Shown one piece after another: positions 5,202 through 56,490 of a DNA stretch of 64,000 nucleotides. Each line of letters begins with the position of its first letter. Positions within the stretch are counted from its first letter, which is position 1. The notes under the pieces are model-generated. The model had not been told where the DNA came from. It did no database searches and was given only the letters and a program-made list of their open reading frames with translations. Position numbers and translations under genes: made by a program. This DNA comes from Candidatus Woesearchaeota archaeon (GTDB lineage: Archaea; Nanobdellota; Nanobdellia; Pacearchaeales; GW2011-AR1): positions 2,752-66,751 of the forward strand of contig CAZBDY010000003.1 in the NCBI GenBank assembly GCA_964490795.1. The letters are read 5' to 3'.

Positions 5202-5599
5202 TGGCAGAAGATAAAAAGAAAAAATTCACATTTAGAGGAAAAACACTGGAAGAATTAGATAAAATGGATATTCGGGAATTTGCCAAATATCTAAAATCAA
5301 GACAAAAAAGAACTGTTTTAAGAAATTTTGATAAAATTGAGATGTTTATAAAACGATGCATGAAAAAAAATAAAAAAGAAAAAGTAATAAAAACCCATAA
5401 AAGAGAAATGATTATAGTTCCTCCAATGATTGGGTTGACAATTCTTGTTTATAATGGGCAAAATTTTTCTCCTGTTAGAATCTCTCCTGACATGTTAGGA
5501 CATAGATTAGGGGAATTTGCACAAACACGAAAAAATGTTACTCATGGAACTCCAGGAGTTGGAGCTACCAGAGGTTCAGCTGCACTGTCTGTAAAATAA
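5201..5599 (+). CDS. rps19: 30S ribosomal protein S19
   Basis: YNGQNFSPVRISPDMLGHRLGEFAQTRK; operon position. Confidence 0.95.
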   Translation: MAEDKKKKFTFRGKTLEELDKMDIREFAKYLKSRQKRTVLRNFDKIEMFIKRCMKKNKKEKVIKTHKREMIIVPPMIGLTILVYNGQNFSPVRISPDMLGHRLGEFAQTRKNVTHGTPGVGATRGSAALSVK

Positions 5600-10346: not shown

Positions 10347-10889
10347 ATGGCAAGAAAAAAAATCAATGAAATTATTGAAATACCAAAAGAAATTGATGTT
10401 CAAATATCTGGAGATTCAATCAAATTCACTAAACAAGAAAAAGAAATAAATGTGAGAATTTTTTATGACCTTCAAAAACAAGATAATAAAATTATATTAA
10501 AAAACGACAATCCCACCAAAAGGGATAAAAAGATAATTAAAACAATGGTTGCTTTGATAAGAAATGCTATCTCTGGATTGCAAGAAAACTACACTTATAC
10601 TTTAAAAATATGCTCTATTCATTTTCCTATGAATGTTGCTGTGCAGGAAAATCAAGTAATAATAAAAAATTTCTTAGGAGAAAGTATTCCAAGAAAAGCT
10701 AACATTCTACAAGATGTTGAAGTAAAAATTGATAAAGATATTATAAAAGTTTCAAGCCCTGATAAAAACAAAGCCGGGCAAACAGCTGCCAATGTTGAAG
10801 AAGCAACAAAAATAAATAATAGAGATAGAAGAGTCTTTCAAGATGGAATATTTATAACTCAAAAACAAAAAGGAGTAAAAAGACAATGA
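10347..10889 (+). CDS. rpl6: 50S ribosomal protein L6
   Basis: 180 aa; operon position between S8 and L32e; two-repeat L6-like pattern. Confidence 0.85.
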   Translation: MARKKINEIIEIPKEIDVQISGDSIKFTKQEKEINVRIFYDLQKQDNKIILKNDNPTKRDKKIIKTMVALIRNAISGLQENYTYTLKICSIHFPMNVAVQENQVIIKNFLGESIPRKANILQDVEVKIDKDIIKVSSPDKNKAGQTAANVEEATKINNRDRRVFQDGIFITQKQKGVKRQ

Positions 10890-30873: not shown

Positions 30874-31890
30874 ATGATACTAGTAACAGGAGCAACAGGT
30901 TTTATAGGAAGTCATTTAGTTGAACAACTTATAAAAGAAAACAAGAAAAAGTTAGGTAAAAAAGAAAAAATCAGATGTCTTGTTTTGAAAGAAGACCCCA
31001 TATTAAAACAAGTAAATAAAAAAAGAATAAACTTATTAAAAAAACTTAAAGTAGAAATTGTTTATGGAGATTTATTAAAACCAGAAACTTTGGATAATGC
31101 ATTAAAAAATGTTGATAAAGTTTTTCATTTAGCAGCAATCTCAAAACCAATGAATATCCCTACACAAAAATATTATGATATAAATGTCACCGGTGTAAAA
31201 AACTTATTACAAGCTGCTGAAAAAAATAAAGTAAAAAAAATAATTCATATCTCTACTATGTCTGTATTTGGATATTCAAGAGACAAAAAACCTTTAACTG
31301 AAAATTCTCCTAAACTTCCTGTTTCTGATTATGGAAAAAGCAAAAAACAAGGAGAACAACTTGTTTTAAATTTTTGTAAGAAAAACAAAATTAAGTTAAA
31401 TATTATTCGTCCCCCAATGGTTTTTGGAGAAAGAGATTTTCAGTTTCTTAAATTATTTAAAGGAATTAATACTGGTTTTTTCCCATTATTAAAAAATGGA
31501 AAGGCAAAATTTGAGTTTTGTTATGTTAAAAATCTTGTTTATGGCATTCTTCTTATAGACAAAAAAGCAAAAAATCTTGAAAATTATAATATAACCGGTG
31601 GAAAAAAATATACAATAAAAGAAGTATTTGAAAAAATAGCAGAATTAGAAGGGAAAAAACTAATTTACTTTCCTGCCTGGTTATTTAAACTAACTGGGTA
31701 TGTCTTAGAAATAATTTATCCAATATTTGGAAAACAACCTCCTTTTAATTCAGGAACATCTGACTGGATGACAAAAGATAATATTATAAATATCTCAAAA
31801 ATAAAAAAATTAGGATATAAACAAAAAATTCCTTTAGAAAAAAGCTTGAAAAACACAATTAAATATTATAAAAAAAACAACTTACTATGA
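30874..31890 (+). CDS. NAD-dependent sugar-nucleotide epimerase/dehydratase (extended SDR)
   Basis: ILVTGATGFIGSHLVEQL Rossmann motif; YGKSK catalytic YxxxK. Confidence 0.85.
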   Translation: MILVTGATGFIGSHLVEQLIKENKKKLGKKEKIRCLVLKEDPILKQVNKKRINLLKKLKVEIVYGDLLKPETLDNALKNVDKVFHLAAISKPMNIPTQKYYDINVTGVKNLLQAAEKNKVKKIIHISTMSVFGYSRDKKPLTENSPKLPVSDYGKSKKQGEQLVLNFCKKNKIKLNIIRPPMVFGERDFQFLKLFKGINTGFFPLLKNGKAKFEFCYVKNLVYGILLIDKKAKNLENYNITGGKKYTIKEVFEKIAELEGKKLIYFPAWLFKLTGYVLEIIYPIFGKQPPFNSGTSDWMTKDNIINISKIKKLGYKQKIPLEKSLKNTIKYYKKNNLL

Positions 31891-33098
31891 AAACACTAAT
31901 ATTATTTTTAGATGCATTTTCATTTACTGACTTAAATGAAAAAAATACCCCCTACATTTACTCTTTAGCAAAAAAAGGAAATTATGGTTCTTTAAAAACA
32001 ATTCCAGCTGGCTATCATATTGAGTACAGTATGTTATCTGGATGTCTTCCTTTAAAGCATAATGTGTGGGCATGGTATTATATGAAACCAGAAGGAAGTT
32101 TTTCTAAAATAAAATACATCTCTCCTTTAATTAAAATAATGGAAAAACTTAATTTAAAAAATCAGGCAAGAACTTTTGTTGATGTTTATATAAATTTAAT
32201 AAGATTATTTCAAGGAAAAACTCGTTTTTTAAAAACAAATAAGATTCCCTACTCTTTATTAAAAAAATTTGAAATCTCGGTAGATAAAATGCATTTTGAA
32301 CATAATCCTCTTCCAGTACCAACTTTATTTGATATATTTAGAAAAAACAATATTAAATATATTGCAAGGGAATTTCCTGTTTTTTCAGATAATCAAAAAA
32401 CAGGTTTTTATTTTACTAAAGGAGACAAAAAACAACTTAAACTTGCGATAAACTCATTAAAAAAATATGATGTCTCTTATCTTCATATATGGCAACTAGA
32501 TGCGCTTGAACATAAATACGGATTACATAGTAACCAAGCAAAAGAATATCTAAAAGAGATAGATACAGAATTAAAAAAACTAACCCAAAACAAAAAAATG
32601 AATATAATTATTTTTTCAGATCACGGAGGAGTTAATGTAACTAAAACCAAAAATCCTCTTCCTATAATAAAAAAATATGATTGCGATTATTTTATTGGTT
32701 CAACAACATTACAAATTTGGCTAAAAAACAAAGATAAATCAAAATTAGATGAACTAAAAAAAGAATTAAAACAAAAAGATTTTTTAGTTTATGATAAAAA
32801 TAATATAGAGAAACAACTTTTTATACCTTATAAAAGAGAATTTGTAGGAGATGTTCTTGCTTTTGTGAAACCAGGACATCAAATCTATCCTGATTTTTTC
32901 AGAGATACAGCAAGAGTCAAATCAATGCATGGATATAGTGAAAAAACACCAGAATTAAACGGGTTATTTATTATATCTGGTTTTAATTTAAAAAACAATA
33001 AGCTTAAAAATATGAAACTTTATGATATAGCACCCACAATTTTAAAGGCATTCAACATTCCTCTCCCTAAAATCTGGGATGGAAAATCTAAAATTTAA
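31887..33098 (+). CDS. Alkaline-phosphatase superfamily protein (type I phosphodiesterase/nucleotide pyrophosphatase-like)
   Basis: LILFLDAFS...IIIFSDHGG...MHGY metal-ligand pattern. Confidence 0.65.
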   Translation: MKTLILFLDAFSFTDLNEKNTPYIYSLAKKGNYGSLKTIPAGYHIEYSMLSGCLPLKHNVWAWYYMKPEGSFSKIKYISPLIKIMEKLNLKNQARTFVDVYINLIRLFQGKTRFLKTNKIPYSLLKKFEISVDKMHFEHNPLPVPTLFDIFRKNNIKYIAREFPVFSDNQKTGFYFTKGDKKQLKLAINSLKKYDVSYLHIWQLDALEHKYGLHSNQAKEYLKEIDTELKKLTQNKKMNIIIFSDHGGVNVTKTKNPLPIIKKYDCDYFIGSTTLQIWLKNKDKSKLDELKKELKQKDFLVYDKNNIEKQLFIPYKREFVGDVLAFVKPGHQIYPDFFRDTARVKSMHGYSEKTPELNGLFIISGFNLKNNKLKNMKLYDIAPTILKAFNIPLPKIWDGKSKI

Positions 33099-42133: not shown

Positions 42134-43525
42134 ATGCCAAAAATGGAAAAAAAATTAGTCATAATAGGAATGGATGGAGCTTCTTGGTATGTATTAAACA
42201 AATTAATGAAAAAAGGCAAATTAAAAAATTTAAGAAAACTGAAAAATAAGAAAATTTTGAAAAGTTGTATTCCTCCTGTAACTGCTCCTGCCTGGAGCTG
42301 TTTTCAAACAGGAAAATGGCCTGGAAAAACAGGACTTTACAAATTTGTAAATATAAAACCTAACTGGAAAATGAAAATGTCTTCTTCCAAAGATGTAAAA
42401 CCTTTTTGGGATAAACTTTCAAAAAATAAAATAAAAAGTTGTATAATCAATGTTCCTCTAACTTATCCAGTTAAAAAAATTAATGGCTATCTAATTTCAG
42501 GAATGTTAACTCCCTCTGAAAATCATGAATATACTTACCCTTCTCAATTAAAACAACAATTAAATAAAATAGGTTATAAAATAGAACCCACAACATATCA
42601 AAAATCTGATATAGAAATAAAACAAGAGGTTATGGAAGCTTTAGAAAAAAGAATAAAAACCGGAAAATTGATGTTAAAAAAACAATGGGACTTTTTCTTA
42701 TTATTTTTCAGAGCAACTGATTTATTACAACATTATTTTTGGGATGAAAAAATAATTCAAGATTGTTATGAAAAAATTGACTCTTTTATAGGATATGTTA
42801 TGAAAAAATATCCTAACTTAATTATAATGTCAGACCATGGATTTGAAAAAGTTGATAAAGCTTTTAATGCAAATGCTTGGCTAAAAAAAGAAAATTATCT
42901 TTTTTTAAATAAAACAAAATCAAAGGGAATAATAAGCAAAAAACTAATTTATAAAATTTTCAGAAAACTTAATCTTGAATGGTTAAGAAGGAGAGTTCCT
43001 AGAAAATTTAAAAAATTATTAAAACAAGATGAAAAAGAAATTGGATTAGAAGAAGCAATTTTACAAAAAAGAATTAATATGAAGAAAACAAAAGCAATGG
43101 CTATTAGGGCTGTAAAATGTGCCAACATTTATATCAATAATACAAAAATGGGTGGAACTATTTCAGAAGAAGAATCTGAAAAATTAAAAAAAGAGATTTC
43201 AGAAAAATTAAAAACTTTTTTTAAGAAAAATAATTTTCAAGCAAAAATTTATTTGCAAGAACAATTATATGGAAAAAACCCTATAAATGCTCCAGATATT
43301 GTTATCTATATGCCTAAAGGATATGATACTAATTGTAATTTTTCATCTGGCATCTGGACAAATATCAAAGAAAGATTAAAAGCAGAGCACAATACAGAAG
43401 CTGTTTTTCTTACAAATAAAGAAATCAAGGGAAATCCAGAAATGGTTGATTTTGCTCCCTCAATATTAAACTTTTTTAATATCAAACCAGACAAAGATAT
43501 GGATGGAAAGATAATCTTCAATTAA
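42134..43525 (+). CDS. Alkaline-phosphatase superfamily protein (type I phosphodiesterase/nucleotide pyrophosphatase-like)
   Basis: VIIGMDGASW...TAPAWSCFQTG...IIMSDHGF. Confidence 0.65.
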   Translation: MPKMEKKLVIIGMDGASWYVLNKLMKKGKLKNLRKLKNKKILKSCIPPVTAPAWSCFQTGKWPGKTGLYKFVNIKPNWKMKMSSSKDVKPFWDKLSKNKIKSCIINVPLTYPVKKINGYLISGMLTPSENHEYTYPSQLKQQLNKIGYKIEPTTYQKSDIEIKQEVMEALEKRIKTGKLMLKKQWDFFLLFFRATDLLQHYFWDEKIIQDCYEKIDSFIGYVMKKYPNLIIMSDHGFEKVDKAFNANAWLKKENYLFLNKTKSKGIISKKLIYKIFRKLNLEWLRRRVPRKFKKLLKQDEKEIGLEEAILQKRINMKKTKAMAIRAVKCANIYINNTKMGGTISEEESEKLKKEISEKLKTFFKKNNFQAKIYLQEQLYGKNPINAPDIVIYMPKGYDTNCNFSSGIWTNIKERLKAEHNTEAVFLTNKEIKGNPEMVDFAPSILNFFNIKPDKDMDGKIIFN

Positions 43526-43560: not shown

Positions 43561-43575
43561 AAACATTTAAAAACC
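43561..43575 (+). promoter_or_regulatory. BRE/TATA AAACATTTAAAAACC
   Basis: The TTTA core at 43566 is 30 nt before ATG 43596. Confidence 0.5.
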
Positions 43576-43595
43576 ATAATTATATATAATTATAA

Positions 43596-43862
43596 ATGAA
43601 AATTAAAAGGAAAAATGAAAATAAGTATAGCACTGTTTCTTTACCAAAACCTCTTGTAGATAAAATCAAATTAACAATAAACGGAAGTGGTTATATTTCA
43701 GTAAGTGATTTTGTTACAGATGTATTAAGAACAACACTAATGCAAAAAAACAAAATCAACAAAAAAAGAAGTTCAAAAGATAAAAAATCAAATTCAAAAG
43801 TGTTTTCAAAACAAGATGAATTAAGGATAAAACAAAGATTAAAAGGACTTGGATATATATAA
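43596..43862 (+). CDS. Ribbon-helix-helix (CopG/Arc-like) DNA-binding protein with a CysD-like C-terminal tail
   Basis: STVSLPKPLVDKIKLTINGSGYISVSDFVTDVLRTTL fits the RHH pattern; C-terminus ...KQRLKGLGYI. Confidence 0.6.
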   Translation: MKIKRKNENKYSTVSLPKPLVDKIKLTINGSGYISVSDFVTDVLRTTLMQKNKINKKRSSKDKKSNSKVFSKQDELRIKQRLKGLGYI

Positions 43863-43863
43863 T

Positions 43864-44691
43864 ATGGAAAAAGAACTATCTCACTTAGACAAATTAGAAT
43901 CAAATAGCATATACATAATTAGAGAAGCATATAAAAAATATAAAAAATTAGGAATGTTGTGGAGTATAGGAAAAGATTCCACAACTTTATTACATTTAGT
44001 AAGAAAAGCTTTTTTTGGAAAAGTTCCTTTTCCTGTTATTTATATTGATACTGGAAAACATTTTCAGGAAATGTATGATTTTAGAGATAAACTTGTAAAA
44101 CAATTAAATCTAAACCTAATTATTTCTTCTAATACTGAAAAAGCAGATAAATTAAAAATAGATGAAAATTCTAAAATAAAATGTTGTGGAATAAGAAAAA
44201 CAGATGCTTTAAAAAACACCTTAGAAAAACACAAGTTTGATGCTTTATTGTTAGGAATAAGAAGAGATGAACACGGAATTAGAGCTAAAGAAAGGGTTTT
44301 TTCTCCAAGAAATAAAGAATTTAAGTGGGATTATAAAAACCAAGCCCCAGAATTATGGAATCAGTATAAAAGCAAAAAACAAGATGAACAACATCTAAGA
44401 ATTCATCCTTTACTAGCCTGGACCGAGCTTGACATATGGGAATATATAAAAAGAGAAAATCTACCTATTAATCCCTTATATTTTGCTAAACAAGGAGAAG
44501 ACGGAAAATTTTATAGATACAGAAGTTTAGGTTGTTCCCCTTGCACTCTTCCTGTAAAATCAAAAGCAGATAATGTTGATAAAATTATTCAGGAAATAAA
44601 AACAAGTAAACAAGAAGAAAGAGGTGGAAGAGCACAAGATAAAGAGACAGCTACTGCCATGCAACAGTTAAGGGCATTAGGATACATGTAA
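43864..44691 (+). CDS. cysD: Sulfate adenylyltransferase subunit 2 (CysD, PAPS-reductase/ATP-PPase fold)
   Basis: HLDKLESNSIYIIREAY...WSIGKDSTTLLHL...RAQDKE...LRALGYM. Start set at the ATG 2 nt after the upstream stop. Confidence 0.9.
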   Translation: MEKELSHLDKLESNSIYIIREAYKKYKKLGMLWSIGKDSTTLLHLVRKAFFGKVPFPVIYIDTGKHFQEMYDFRDKLVKQLNLNLIISSNTEKADKLKIDENSKIKCCGIRKTDALKNTLEKHKFDALLLGIRRDEHGIRAKERVFSPRNKEFKWDYKNQAPELWNQYKSKKQDEQHLRIHPLLAWTELDIWEYIKRENLPINPLYFAKQGEDGKFYRYRSLGCSPCTLPVKSKADNVDKIIQEIKTSKQEERGGRAQDKETATAMQQLRALGYM

Positions 44692-44717
44692 AAAATTTTC
44701 AAATAAAAAATTCTAAA

Positions 44718-44831
44718 ATGAAAGAAAAAAATAAAAAAACAGAAGATGAAGAAGAAGATGAAGAAGAAGTCTTTGATGAAAAAGATAAAGAAGAAATCAA
44801 AAAAAGACTTCAAGCTTTAGGATATATGTAA
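44718..44831 (+). CDS. 37-aa acidic protein ending in a CysD-like tail (not in the ORF track)
   Basis: Own translation [37 protein letters not shown]; lies between cysD and cysN. Confidence 0.5.
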
Positions 44832-44842
44832 AATACTTTAAA

Positions 44843-46069
44843 ATGAAAACAAAAGATAAAGAATATATGGATATAGTTATAGTGGGGCATGTTGATCACG
44901 GAAAATCAACTCTAATTGGAAGATTATTTTATGATACTAACTCTCTACCCCCAGGAAAATTAAAAGAATTAAAACAAGCTTCAGACGCATTAGGAAAAGA
45001 ACTTGAATTTGGATTTATTCTTGATCACTTAGAAGAAGAGAGAGAACAAGGAATAACTATTGACACAACTCAAAAATTCTTTAATACTGAAAAAAGAAAT
45101 TACACAATAATAGATGCTCCAGGACATGTAGAGTTTATTAAAAATATGATTACAGGAGCAAGTCAAGCACAAGCAGCAATACTAATAGTAGATGCAAGCG
45201 AGGGAGTACAAGAACAAACAAAAAGGCATGCTTATATCTTATCAATGTTAGGATTAAAACAAGTTATAGTGGTAATTAATAAAATGGATTTAATTAACTA
45301 TAATAAAGAGAAATATGAAAAAGTCCAACAAGAAACTCAGGAATTTTTGAAAAAAATTAATATCTCTCCAATATACTTTATCCCAATATCAGCTCAAAAA
45401 GGAGATAATATAGCTAAAAAATCAGAACACCTGGATTGGTATTCTGGATTAACAACACTTGAAGCTTTAGATTCTTTTAAAAAAGAAAAAGAAAAAGAAA
45501 AATCATTAAGATTTTCTGTTCAAGATGTTTATAATTTTGATAAAAGAATAATTGCAGGAAAAATTATTTCAGGAACATTAGAAAAAAACCAGGAAATAAC
45601 AATTCTTCCTTCTAACTATAAAACAAAAATAAAAACAATTGAAGATTTTACTAATCAAGTTGATAAGGCAATAGCTGGAAAAAATATAGGACTAACTACT
45701 TTAGATAAACTTTTCATAGAAAGAGGAAATATAATAATAAATTCTGATTCAGAAATCCCAAAAATAACAGATAAAATAAAAGCAAATATTTTTTGGCTTT
45801 CACAAAAACCTTACAAAATAGGTGAAAAGTTAACTTTCAAATGTTCAACTCAAAATATTGATTGTGAAATTATTAAAATTAAGAAAAAAATAAATTCTTC
45901 AACTTTAGAAAAAATTACCAATAATAATAAAATTGAAAACAGAGAGGCAGCTGATGTCATAATTAAAACAGAAAAACCAGTTATAATTGAAAATTTTAAT
46001 AAAATTCCAGAATTAGGGAGATTTGTATTAGAAACAAATGATACTGTAGCTGGAGGAATTATCACTTGA
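44843..46069 (+). CDS. cysN: Sulfate adenylyltransferase subunit 1 (CysN GTPase), without a fused APS kinase domain
   Basis: [20 protein letters not shown] and NKMD GTPase motifs; 408 aa. Confidence 0.9.
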
Positions 46070-46073
46070 AAAA

Positions 46074-46784
46074 ATGGTGAAAAAAATAATTTTAGCTATA
46101 GATGCTTTAGAATATAATCTTGTTGAAAAATTTGATTGTGAAAATCTTAAACAAAAATTTTATGGAAAAACAGATATCTCAGAATTTTCTCAGCCAAGAA
46201 CAATTGTTTTATGGAGTTCTTTTTTATCTGGAAAAAACAAAGAAAAAGAAATTTTAAAATTAGGAGATGAAAAAATGTGGGAATTTAAAGTTCCAGAACA
46301 AGAATCTTTTTTAAAAAGAAACTATAAAGTTATTGACTTGCCAGCATTTTCTTATGAAAAACAGCAACATAAAAAAGAGAGGCAACTTTTAAAACAATTT
46401 TTTTTAGAAAAAAATCCTGAAAAATCTGAACAAATAAAAGAACAATATAATTCTCTATCTTTAGAACATCATAAAAAAATAAAACAGCAGTTTCTTTCTT
46501 CTTTAAACGAGGATTATGACTTGCTTATTTGCTATTTTTCTGTAATAGATGTGATAGGACATGTGAATTTTGGAAATCAATTTTTAATGAAAATGCTATA
46601 TAAAGATTTAGATGATTTAGCCTCAATAGCAGGAAACAAGACAGAATTATTAATTTTATCTGACCATGGAATGAAATCAATAGGAAAATATGGAGACCAC
46701 TCTAATTATGGTTTTTGGAGTTTTAAAAAAGATTTAAAAAATCCAAAAATAACTGATTTTTTTAATATAATAAAAAAATGGTAA
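46074..46784 (+). CDS. Small (236 aa) alkaline-phosphatase-core protein
   Basis: ILAIDALEY...PRTIVLWSSFLSG...IDVIGH...LILSDHGM...GDHS: a complete AlkP-type metal/nucleophile pattern in a minimal protein, starting 4 nt after the cysN stop. Confidence 0.55.
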   Translation: MVKKIILAIDALEYNLVEKFDCENLKQKFYGKTDISEFSQPRTIVLWSSFLSGKNKEKEILKLGDEKMWEFKVPEQESFLKRNYKVIDLPAFSYEKQQHKKERQLLKQFFLEKNPEKSEQIKEQYNSLSLEHHKKIKQQFLSSLNEDYDLLICYFSVIDVIGHVNFGNQFLMKMLYKDLDDLASIAGNKTELLILSDHGMKSIGKYGDHSNYGFWSFKKDLKNPKITDFFNIIKKW

Positions 46785-55455: not shown

Positions 55456-56490
55456 TTAAGAAAACTTATGTTTTAAATGTTTCAATTCTTCTGAATTTAA
55501 TGGATTTTTATATAACTCATTAACTAACCATAATCCGGATTTTCTGATTTTCTGTTTAGAAGAAAATCTTCCCAGCCATTTCTTACTAGGAAAACATTCC
55601 TTACATAATGAAATTGTAGATATTAATTTTTTCTCTATATCTAATCTTCTCTCTTTATTATTTTCAGGAATAATTATAAAAGAAAAATTATTCTGAATAT
55701 AACTTGAAACCTGGTTTTCTATCTTTTCTTGTTTTTCTTTATCAACTAAATGAGAAAAATTTTCTCTTGCTTTTTTTGTAGTTAAATCTATCTCCCAAAT
55801 ATCTAAATAAGGGTTTTTACTTTTATTTAATAATGCTCTTCCAATGTTTTTTCTAAATATACTCCTATCTTTATTTTTATTAATAAAATGTTGTCTTAAT
55901 CTTGATTTTAACTGATTTTGCCCTGTATGTGTTCCTACTCTTACTATCCTATCTTTATTATGGGCTTTTTCATTTTTTTCAAACAAAACATATATGCCAT
56001 TTTCAGGAATTTCTTTATAATTAAATGGGAAATAAAACCTCTTTAAATTATTAAAAAAATTATGAACCTCTTTACAAATATTTTTTGTATTTTGTTTTAA
56101 AAATTTAAGTTGCTTTCCTATCCCTAAGCCTTTTAATGGAATTTTATAATCTTTAATGTATGAAATTAAAAACTCTCTGTATTTTTCACCACATAAAAAA
56201 ATAAATTCATCATTTTCTAAATCTGTTTTTTCTTGTAATTGTAATAAAACCTTTTTACCCCATTTTTCCCTCTCTTGTTTACTCATATTATTTAAACTTA
56301 AGTTATATGGCCCTATCTCCTCATCTAATTCTAATAACCCATATTTTGCAGAAACCACAAATATTTTATCTGGATTTAATTTTTCAGCATAGTTTAAATT
56401 TGATTTAAAATAATCAGAAATATAAAGATTTTGAGCTTTTTGTTTTTTATCTGATTTTTTACTTGCACAAGATAATAATACTATCTTCAT
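55456..56490 (-). CDS. Two-domain protein: DUF6884-like N-domain plus GIY-YIG nuclease-like C-domain
   Basis: N-domain: MKIVLLSCASKKS...LYISDYF...IFVVSAKYGLLELDEEIGPYN. C-domain: NGIYVLFEKNE...IVRVGTHTGQNQLKSRLRQHF...CKECFPSKKWLGRFS...SGLWLV. Family names are recalled from memory. Confidence 0.55.
   Translation of the reverse strand: MKIVLLSCASKKSDKKQKAQNLYISDYFKSNLNYAEKLNPDKIFVVSAKYGLLELDEEIGPYNLSLNNMSKQEREKWGKKVLLQLQEKTDLENDEFIFLCGEKYREFLISYIKDYKIPLKGLGIGKQLKFLKQNTKNICKEVHNFFNNLKRFYFPFNYKEIPENGIYVLFEKNEKAHNKDRIVRVGTHTGQNQLKSRLRQHFINKNKDRSIFRKNIGRALLNKSKNPYLDIWEIDLTTKKARENFSHLVDKEKQEKIENQVSSYIQNNFSFIIIPENNKERRLDIEKKLISTISLCKECFPSKKWLGRFSSKQKIRKSGLWLVNELYKNPLNSEELKHLKHKFS

Follow-up and report, generated by a model that had tools for sequence, protein, structure and literature searches.

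The 64,000-nucleotide window analysed here, a stretch of a contig assigned to Candidatus Woesearchaeota (GenBank CAZBDY010000003.1), contains a locus which, judged from its sequence, is a sulfate-activation operon of a low-GC, Woesearchaeota-like archaeon. Its genes encode, in this order, a small ribbon-helix-helix (RHH) regulator, the ATP sulfurylase subunit CysD, a short open reading frame (ORF) referred to in the following as micro-ORF, the GTPase subunit CysN and a short phosphodiesterase-like protein termed PDshort (Table 1). The first-pass annotation of this DNA had described the regulator, CysD and the micro-ORF as three adjacent proteins ending in LGY[IM] directly before the stop codon, and had proposed that the tail of CysD is a docking peptide for CysN or another partner which is mimicked by the other two. 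The present analysis is concerned with the regulator as a member of a very large family with an invariant C-terminal tail, with the putative operator of this family, with the sulfate-activation genes that follow it, and with the micro-ORF as a tail-only relative of the regulator.

Table 1. Coordinates of the features at the sulfate-activation locus (positions within the 64-kb window)
Feature	Coordinates (strand)	Length	Description
Type I phosphodiesterase-family protein	42134..43525 (+)		Directly upstream of the regulator; Pfam Phosphodiest, E 1.4e-35; without tail
TATA-like box	43565..43573 (+)		ATTTAAAAA; ~27 nt before the RHH start codon
Putative operator	43576..43593		ATAATTAT-AT-ATAATTAT, containing TAATTA-N4-TAATTA; 2 nt before the regulator's ATG
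RHH-tail regulator	43596..43862 (+)	88 aa	C-terminus ...RLKGLGYI; predicted RHH domain (~residues 11-50), basic linker, capped C-terminal helix
Tail module of the regulator	43800..43859 (+)	residues 69-88	VFSKQDELRIKQRLKGLGYI
CysD	43864..44691 (+)		Catalytic subunit of sulfate adenylyltransferase (ATP sulfurylase); tail QQLRALGYM encoded at 44662-44688
Micro-ORF	44718..44831 (+)	37 aa	Acidic; C-terminus ...LQALGYM; RHH-tail family linker plus tail, RHH domain absent
CysN	44843..46069 (+)		GTPase subunit, EF-1alpha relative; without tail
PDshort	46074..46784 (+)	236 aa	Short phosphodiesterase-like protein; Pfam Phosphodiest, E 1.2e-4, below cut-off

The three matching C-termini

A scan of all six reading frames of the window (27% GC) for ORFs of 30 aa or more that have LGY among the last six residues gave exactly three, and these are mutual neighbours. 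Since no other such ORF exists in the 64 kb, a chance origin of the three tails is excluded, and the coordinates and C-termini given in the first-pass annotation were found to be correct. The 3′ DNA ends of the three genes had been described as similar as well; the strings quoted for this are accurate, but the similarity is uneven. The regulator and the micro-ORF have about 20 residues in common (VF-x-x-x-D-x-x-x-IK-x-RL-x-x-LGY) and are 65% identical in the last 66 nt of their DNA, whereas CysD shares only the last 7-8 residues with the other two tails, at a DNA identity of 45-52%. By this comparison, the three tails are two different things, namely a family tail of the regulator and the micro-ORF on the one hand and a separate feature of the CysD family on the other.

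CysD was identified by its matches to Pfam PAPS_reduct (E 1.7e-49), to NCBIfam NF003587 (361.6 bits, cut-off 195) and to chain A of PDB entry 1ZUN (E 3e-69), and the PP-loop SIGKDS is present in its translation. CysN, the gene of which starts 152 nt past the end of cysD, matches Pfam GTP_EFTU (E 2.6e-53) and TIGR02034 (363.2 bits, cut-off 336.1) and contains the G1 motif GHVDHGKST. The G-Y-M end of the window's CysD agrees with the ends of the CysD ORFs examined here; CysD of P. syringae (1ZUN chain A) aligns through ...RQGY to residue 324 of 325, one residue before its end. A G-Y-[MF] end was found in nearly all CysD ORFs of the loci fetched in this study, the exceptions being one G-Y-P end and two loci without a detected tail, so that the earlier statement of a conserved hydrophobic G-Y-[FM] terminus in CysD holds. 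On this comparative basis, the CysD tail belongs to the CysD family as a whole, is separate from the regulator tail and has in common with it only a [KR]-hydrophobic-[KR]-x-L-G-Y-hydrophobic helix end. The Leu before G-Y (LR[AS]LGYM) is confined to the archaeal-type short CysD clade, and it is due to this residue that the CysD end resembles the regulator tail. Literature searches returned nothing on the CysD C-terminus.

The RHH-tail family, its putative operator and its gene neighbourhoods

A search with a profile of the tail alone matched at least 3491 proteins, and among the best 120 there were only RHH proteins, either 60-97 aa long or truncated at a contig end; some family members are labelled 'CopG family' or 'Arc/MetJ-type' in the source databases. 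In 16 close homologues of the window protein (51-65% identity) the residues R81, L82, L85, G86 and Y87 are invariant despite the variable length of the linker. No column other than these five is invariant when 21 or 69 members are aligned, and the RHH domain varies across the family while the five tail residues remain unchanged. The family consensus reads (Y/F)TTVSIPxxLxxKIKxRIxGTGFxSxSSYVTYVLREV, followed by an acidic linker and by EVFSKEDEEKVKERL[RK]ALGY[LI]D. According to these alignments, the family is very large and uncurated, occurs in archaea and in some bacteria, and combines an RHH domain, a flexible linker and a capped amphipathic helix of about 20 residues ending in R-L-x-x-L-G-Y-hydrophobic; the tail is, by the same measure, the most conserved part of the regulator and exceeds the DNA-binding domain in this respect.

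No RHH model of Pfam was matched by the window protein, and its best NCBIfam match was the N-terminal region of NikR (residues 12-64, E 2.4e-5, 24.5 bits against a cut-off of 119). The family as a whole has no model in Pfam or NCBIfam; a typical member (P0036) matches no NCBIfam family, and a relative in locus L006 (5203-5550) matches RHH_1 at E 1.5e-4. The AlphaFold2 (AF2) monomer model of the regulator contains helices at residues 18-28, 36-64 and 72-85, the first two of which follow the conserved YSTVSLP segment, and no strand. For the tail helix the predicted local distance difference test score (pLDDT) was about 87-91, a value that is uninformative for a free helix. The best Foldseek matches of the model were ParD antitoxins (8c24_E, 7r5a; probability 0.87-0.96) and the RHH domain of NikR, with probabilities of 0.87-0.97 overall, an E value of only 0.4 and TM-scores, normalised to the target, of up to 0.79. 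An RHH fold of the 88-aa protein is thus predicted from its modelled structure, with profile scores that lie below the curated cut-offs.

Two observations on individual family members were made in passing. The closest species-representative genome (locus L006, Woesearchaeota; CysD 73% identical) encodes two RHH-like repeats in one chain followed by the tail (5203-5553), and a second, ordinary RHH-tail gene (10641-10877) lies about 4 kb downstream of its cysD. In two bins labelled Micrarchaeota (archaeon; L016, 5057-5323) and Acidiferrales (bacterium; L018, 5382-5648), the RHH-tail genes and the flanking promoter DNA are nearly identical, which suggests either a binning error or a recent transfer.

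The TATA-like box ahead of the regulator gene is proposed as a promoter element from its agreement with the archaeal consensus, and relatives show TTTATAAA or TTTTTAAAG at equal distance from the RHH start; it would imply a leaderless or near-leaderless transcript. The 18-mer downstream of it, in full ATAATTATATATAATTAT, harbours the sole TAATTA-N4-TAATTA of the 64 kb and is the only match to itself in the window if up to 2 mismatches are allowed. Identical 16-18 bp precede the RHH ATG in L001, L004, L174 and L175, with a variant in L005, and the flanking DNA differs among these loci. Across the family, 36 of 78 distinct upstream regions of 100 nt contain TAATTA-N4-TAATTA. This pattern was counted 53 times in 7.8 kb of upstream DNA (6.8 per kb) compared with 17 times in the remaining 1.53 Mb (0.011 per kb), which corresponds to an enrichment of about 600-fold. 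The family promoters contain 2-5 TAATTA boxes at 10-bp spacing (e.g. TAATTAcataTAATTAaataTAATTAtataTAATTA). Due to this conserved and enriched element, there is strong comparative evidence that the 88-aa protein is the DNA-binding regulator of the operon, and the position of the site points to repression by promoter blocking. The view of the first-pass annotation that an RHH-type regulator is placed to control the operon is therefore strengthened by a putative operator which is found family-wide and lies directly ahead of the start codon. Away from any RHH-tail gene, two occurrences of TAATTA-N4-TAATTA were found across all loci. In an RHH-led cluster, the site at 11385 in L136 lies downstream of an APS (adenosine 5′-phosphosulfate) kinase gene and ahead of a gene of 274 aa and may be a second regulated promoter, and the site at 5154 in L085 precedes a cysD-like ORF in a Lentisphaerae genome.

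For the analysis of gene neighbourhoods, a metagenome scan with the family alignment yielded 80 loci, 78 of which were parsed, and the neighbouring genes were annotated by local BLASTP. The gene directly after the RHH-tail gene encodes a Sat-type ATP sulfurylase in 43 loci, CysD in 14, a sulfotransferase in 7 and a phosphodiesterase-family protein in 3; in 6 loci the contig ends and in 5 another gene follows. A sulfate-activation or sulfotransfer gene is located at most 6 kb away in 67 of the 78 loci, and a CysN gene was detected within about 6 kb in 9. From these gene orders, the RHH-tail gene is the first gene of operons for the synthesis of APS or PAPS (3′-phosphoadenosine 5′-phosphosulfate), irrespective of the type of sulfurylase. 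In close relatives of the window protein the order is phosphodiesterase-family gene, RHH, CysD, (TauE), CysN; the phosphodiesterase-family gene upstream of the RHH gene is also found in L001, L004 and L174, the last of which is exceptional in having a sulfatase-family gene after RHH. Examples of other layouts, found after the RHH-tail genes of distant family members, are Sat-type ATP sulfurylase, DHH phosphoesterase, sulfotransferase and APS kinase (L086), Sat, phosphodiesterase and APS kinase (L088), and a second RHH-tail gene, CysD, CysN and PDshort (L089). Moreover, the tail family adjoins CysD proteins ending in ...KKEGYF, as in E. coli.

Between cysD and cysN, the position of the micro-ORF in the window, L001-L003 encode a TauE/SafE-family membrane protein (3399-4175 in L001). 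PDshort proteins of 230-245 aa are encoded after cysN in the window and in L089 and L145, between the two genes in L126, L133 and L140, and directly after cysD in L147, which is cut off there by the end of the contig. No Pfam match above the cut-off and no NCBIfam match was obtained for PDshort, and by its recurrent position it is a companion of archaeal cysDN. In L086, a stand-alone protein of 82 aa (340-588) matches EF-Tu/EF-G domain 2. Its gene immediately precedes a phosphodiesterase-family gene and is separated by a few kb from a Sat-type sulfate-activation operon without CysN.

The tail-only micro-ORF and the tail motif on other proteins

The micro-ORF matches the linker-plus-tail consensus of the family, EEVFSKEDEEKVKERLRALGYLD, over about 20 residues, a far better match than its match to CysD; by this alignment it is a paralogue of the RHH-tail family that retains only linker and tail. 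A counterpart was found in L004 at 5294-5404 (MEKGIEEKSKEEDEEVFSKEDKEKIKERLRALGYMD), where the RHH protein is about 62% identical to that of the window. Comparison of the last 24 codons of the two ORFs gave 0.75 substitutions per synonymous site (pS) and 0.17 per non-synonymous site (pN), i.e. a pN/pS of about 0.23, which indicates, from the few sites available, purifying selection on the micro-ORF, so that the first-pass annotation appears to have been right in treating it as a real gene. Its exact sequence is absent from a collection of 15 billion proteins and it has accordingly never been called as a gene. With the 37-aa ORF, a short and acidic query, phmmer retrieved 0 matches among 1.8 billion representatives, and no Shine-Dalgarno sequence was found before the micro-ORF. 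A second small tail-bearing protein was also observed in other loci, namely as paired RHH-tail genes in L089, L006 and L098 and as a 48-aa ORF in L008.

In order to assess the tail beyond the regulator, a matrix of the RHH tail was applied to the C-terminal ends of 3220 long ORFs taken from all loci. High scores were obtained for RHH proteins, CysD, APS kinases, sulfatase-family and phosphodiesterase-family proteins, and the lone other high scorer was one HsdM methylase. The tail is enriched among cysD neighbours elsewhere, as the first-pass annotation had required of its proposal: among species-representative loci, extra tail-bearing neighbours occur at 8 of 21 cysD loci of the LGY type and at 1 of 59 others (Fisher p = 5e-5, kinship ignored). 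An ...[KE]LGY[IL] end, followed by 0-12 residues, is present in roughly 16 of the 26 APS kinases encoded by RHH-led operons (e.g. L086 8862-9386, L088 8843-9385 and others in L092-L169), and about a third of these kinases lack G-Y. In a clade of PF00884 'sulfatase' proteins (P0138-P0257, homologues of L007 10127-11401), 102 of 120 members end in ...[RK]L[RK]xLGY[VIL]x. Many members of this clade have an N-terminal signal, a lipobox or membrane segments, and the three tail-bearing sulfatase-family genes that were examined are all located in unrelated housekeeping loci. The AF2 model of one member (P0145; predicted TM-score 0.91, linker pLDDT ~90) shows helix and linker with high confidence and is consistent with packing of the helix on the domain. 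By eye, the clade has T-x-P-S-x-R in place of the usual C/S-x-P-x-R formylglycine motif, and this sequence suggests that the nucleophile is a Thr, like that of phosphoethanolamine transferases, and that these proteins are not true sulfatases.

Following the general rules of helix capping, the motif looks like a generic self-stabilised helix with a Ser/Thr-x-x-Asp/Glu cap, an acidic start, a basic end, a Gly (Schellman-type) cap and an aromatic plus hydrophobic anchor. Because apparently exported sulfatase-family proteins bear the same 8-mer, convergence of unrelated proteins on it is plausible, and a single cytoplasmic receptor for all carriers of the tail is unlikely in view of the signal or lipobox in this clade and the three genes in unrelated contexts. 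For the same reason, similarity of tails alone does not prove mimicry. Known short motifs were considered and rejected on the sequence pattern: the hydrophobic position of a PIP box is a variable residue here; the proteasomal HbYX motif does not agree with Gly before Tyr and with the variable offset of Tyr from the C-terminus; the last residues are too variable for a PDZ ligand; sorting signals and cargo-loading peptides are at variance with the same tail on a DNA-binding regulator; and five invariant residues are too many for a membrane-targeting helix.

Proposed mechanism, rival explanations and known systems

In the mechanism proposed here, RHH dimers would bind the palindromic TAATTA boxes between TATA box and start codon and thereby repress the operon. 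The 10-bp spacing would place neighbouring dimers on one face of the DNA, and the tail helix would then be best placed, as a protein-binding module, to join these dimers or to take regulatory input, the joining of dimers on adjacent boxes being regarded as its most likely role and the receipt of a regulatory signal as a possible additional one. The tail-only micro-protein, encoded within the operon, might act in trans as a decoy that caps the tails and in this way tunes repression, and the likeness of CysD would most simply be a shared solution for a stable short helix, with acidic start, basic end, glycine cap and aromatic anchor. The reading of the tail as the regulator's assembly or signal helix and of the micro-protein as its decoy is held with evenly balanced confidence.

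Several points weigh against it. The cooperative role and the decoy role are derived from the operator layout and from a tail-only ORF that appears to be under selection, and the selection estimate is based on 24 codons. Few tail-only ORFs exist, namely in the window, in L004 and perhaps in L008 among about 170 loci, and there is an assembly gap just upstream of the copy in L004. The RHH domains of Arc and MetJ bind cooperatively without a tail, so that tandem boxes can be accounted for without one. Five residues that stay invariant from archaea to bacteria are a stronger constraint than is usual for a simple self-association helix and would also fit a conserved ligand or receptor. Finally, the co-occurrence of LGY-type CysD with extra tail-bearing neighbours, for which phylogeny was not corrected, could reflect a functional link.

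In the docking model of the first-pass annotation, the CysD tail docks on CysN, the regulator and the micro-protein mimic this tail, and the amount of free CysN sets transcription or enzyme assembly as in a partner switch. This model draws on the fact that the three tails flank cysN and conform to [KR]-L-[KRQ]-x-L-G-Y-[IM], on the enrichment at LGY-type cysD loci and on the layout of RHH domain plus C-terminal helix known from ParD antitoxins, the tails of which bind a partner protein; furthermore, an acidic linker with a hydrophobic end recalls the tail of the archaeal ribosomal stalk, which binds EF-1alpha, a relative of CysN. The same invariant tail, however, heads operons in which the sulfurylase is the unrelated Sat in 43 of the 78 loci, and a CysN gene was detected within about 6 kb in only 9. 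It is also found beside CysD proteins ending in ...KKEGYF, the 8-mer recurs on APS kinases and sulfatase-family proteins, and the regulator resembles the micro-ORF over a much longer stretch than CysD, all of which makes tail mimicry of CysD for CysN docking very unlikely. If the tail docked instead on another protein of the pathway, or paired with the look-alike tails of CysD and APS kinase, enzyme levels could sequester the regulator in a manner comparable to the conditional cooperativity of toxin-antitoxin systems. The ParD-like fold would suit this, as would the restriction of high tail scores to a few protein families plus the one HsdM methylase and the fact that each operon type usually has one LGY-ending enzyme (CysD if it is a cysDN operon, APS kinase in many operons of the Sat type). 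No one enzyme is common to all operons, though, a third or so of the APS kinases lack G-Y, APS kinase was not detected in the 64-kb window, and the generic helix cap accounts for the recurrence of the motif without any contact, so that docking on a pathway enzyme is considered unlikely. A broader version treats the [KR]-hydrophobic-[KR]-x-L-G-Y-hydrophobic tail as a shared functional tag of the cytoplasmic sulfate-activation proteins (regulator, CysD, APS kinase), serving either as a docking helix for one another or a common receptor or as a site of tyrosine modification, e.g. sulfation by the small sulfotransferases of the operon, with the micro-protein as dedicated decoy or buffer. This is decidedly unlikely; if true, pathway flux would feed back directly on the enzymes and on the repressor of the operon.

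The invariance of the tail across archaea and bacteria, independent of the enzymes of the operon, would also fit a universal small ligand. Tail and RHH body might together bind APS, PAPS, pAp (3′-phosphoadenosine 5′-phosphate) or sulfate and thereby alter DNA binding, as S-adenosylmethionine does for MetJ; the conserved Arg/Lys and Tyr could bind phosphosulfate and adenine, and pAp and PAPS have been discussed as possible messenger molecules in some organisms (PMC8268124). A helix as short as this one (14-20 residues), attached by a flexible linker, nevertheless makes a poor pocket, a selected tail-only protein makes little sense if the tail requires the RHH body, and the 8-mer is also present on apparently exported sulfatase-family proteins; a metabolite sensor is hence improbable. 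That there is no functional link at all, the micro-ORF being what is left of a second, decaying RHH-tail gene and the likeness of CysD a coincidence, would agree with the failure of gene callers and of phmmer to find the micro-ORF and with its lack of a Shine-Dalgarno sequence, and the paired RHH-tail genes in L089 and L006 make a truncated copy a plausible by-product. Against a remnant speak the intact frame with ATG and full tail, the counterpart in a relative in which synonymous sites are saturated and residues conserved, and a stop-free stretch of 62 codons that is, by estimate, unlikely in DNA of 27% GC. This explanation is therefore regarded as highly improbable.

The preferred reading, an assembly or signal helix with a tail-only decoy, extends a known scheme. 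MetJ, Arc, Mnt and CopG are likewise small RHH dimers that repress their own operon from short tandem palindromic boxes, and the C-terminal helix of Mnt makes tetramers. The RHH-tail family differs from them in its tail motif, its TAATTA-N4-TAATTA operator and its sulfate-activation regulon; short repeated or palindromic subsites near the own promoter, as typical of operators of the RHH class, are present in the sequence, and binding to them is predicted. The ParD antitoxins, which gave the best structural matches, have the same layout of an RHH domain and a C-terminal helix, partner-binding in ParD, in the first gene of an operon. RHH-tail genes are followed not by a toxin gene but by metabolic enzymes of several unrelated families, and membership in a type II toxin-antitoxin system was rejected since no ParE/RelE-like gene lies downstream, the place being taken by CysD in the window and by Sat, CysD, sulfotransferase or phosphodiesterase-family genes in relatives. 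In bacteria, sulfate assimilation is controlled by the LysR-type regulators CysB and Cbl, which act on cysDN and related genes. These are functional analogues and differ by an unrelated fold, a large ligand-binding domain and another mode of action.

A 'putative copG transcription factor' heads a cluster of copG, ATP sulfurylase, DHH pApase, type I phosphodiesterase and APS kinase in Pyrococcus yayanosii (PYCH_17520) and other archaea (PMC8268124); for P. yayanosii, that paper also cites markerless gene disruption. The same gene order follows the RHH-tail genes in L125, L135 and L158. The window differs in having CysDN instead of Sat, and no DHH, APS kinase, PAPS reductase or sulfotransferase gene was detected in its 64 kb. 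From the gene order, the copG gene leading the Thermococcales cluster may belong to the RHH-tail family. That report names copG as a possible regulator and describes no tail, operator or micro-protein; it contains the one passing mention that was retrieved by literature searches for an RHH/CopG regulator of ATP sulfurylase, and in the literature searched there was no account of the invariant tail, of the TAATTA-N4-TAATTA operator, of the association of one family with Sat as well as CysDN operons or of a tail-only micro-protein. Already known are thus the gene cluster with its putative copG regulator and the principle of an RHH regulator that leads its operon and carries a C-terminal effector helix. 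As the ways in which archaea and many uncultured bacteria control PAPS synthesis are essentially uncharacterised, the family offers a testable candidate with thousands of members, a precise putative operator and a defined regulon. The conservation of the tail above that of the DNA-binding domain is a constraint that calls for an explanation, and the micro-protein overlooked by gene callers could be a simple example of a domain-less decoy tuning a repressor.

The cysDN operon is enclosed by a glycan-biosynthesis island (28186-51042) with several glycosyltransferases, an epimerase, a UDP-glucose dehydrogenase, a flippase, a deacetylase and two radical SAM enzymes. Three phosphodiesterase-family paralogues are encoded in this island, one at 31887-33098 and the two flanking genes of Table 1. 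Unrelated to the tail, a 344-aa protein with a strong match to DUF6884 (E 1.6e-44) is encoded at 55456-56490, downstream of the SecD/SecF genes.

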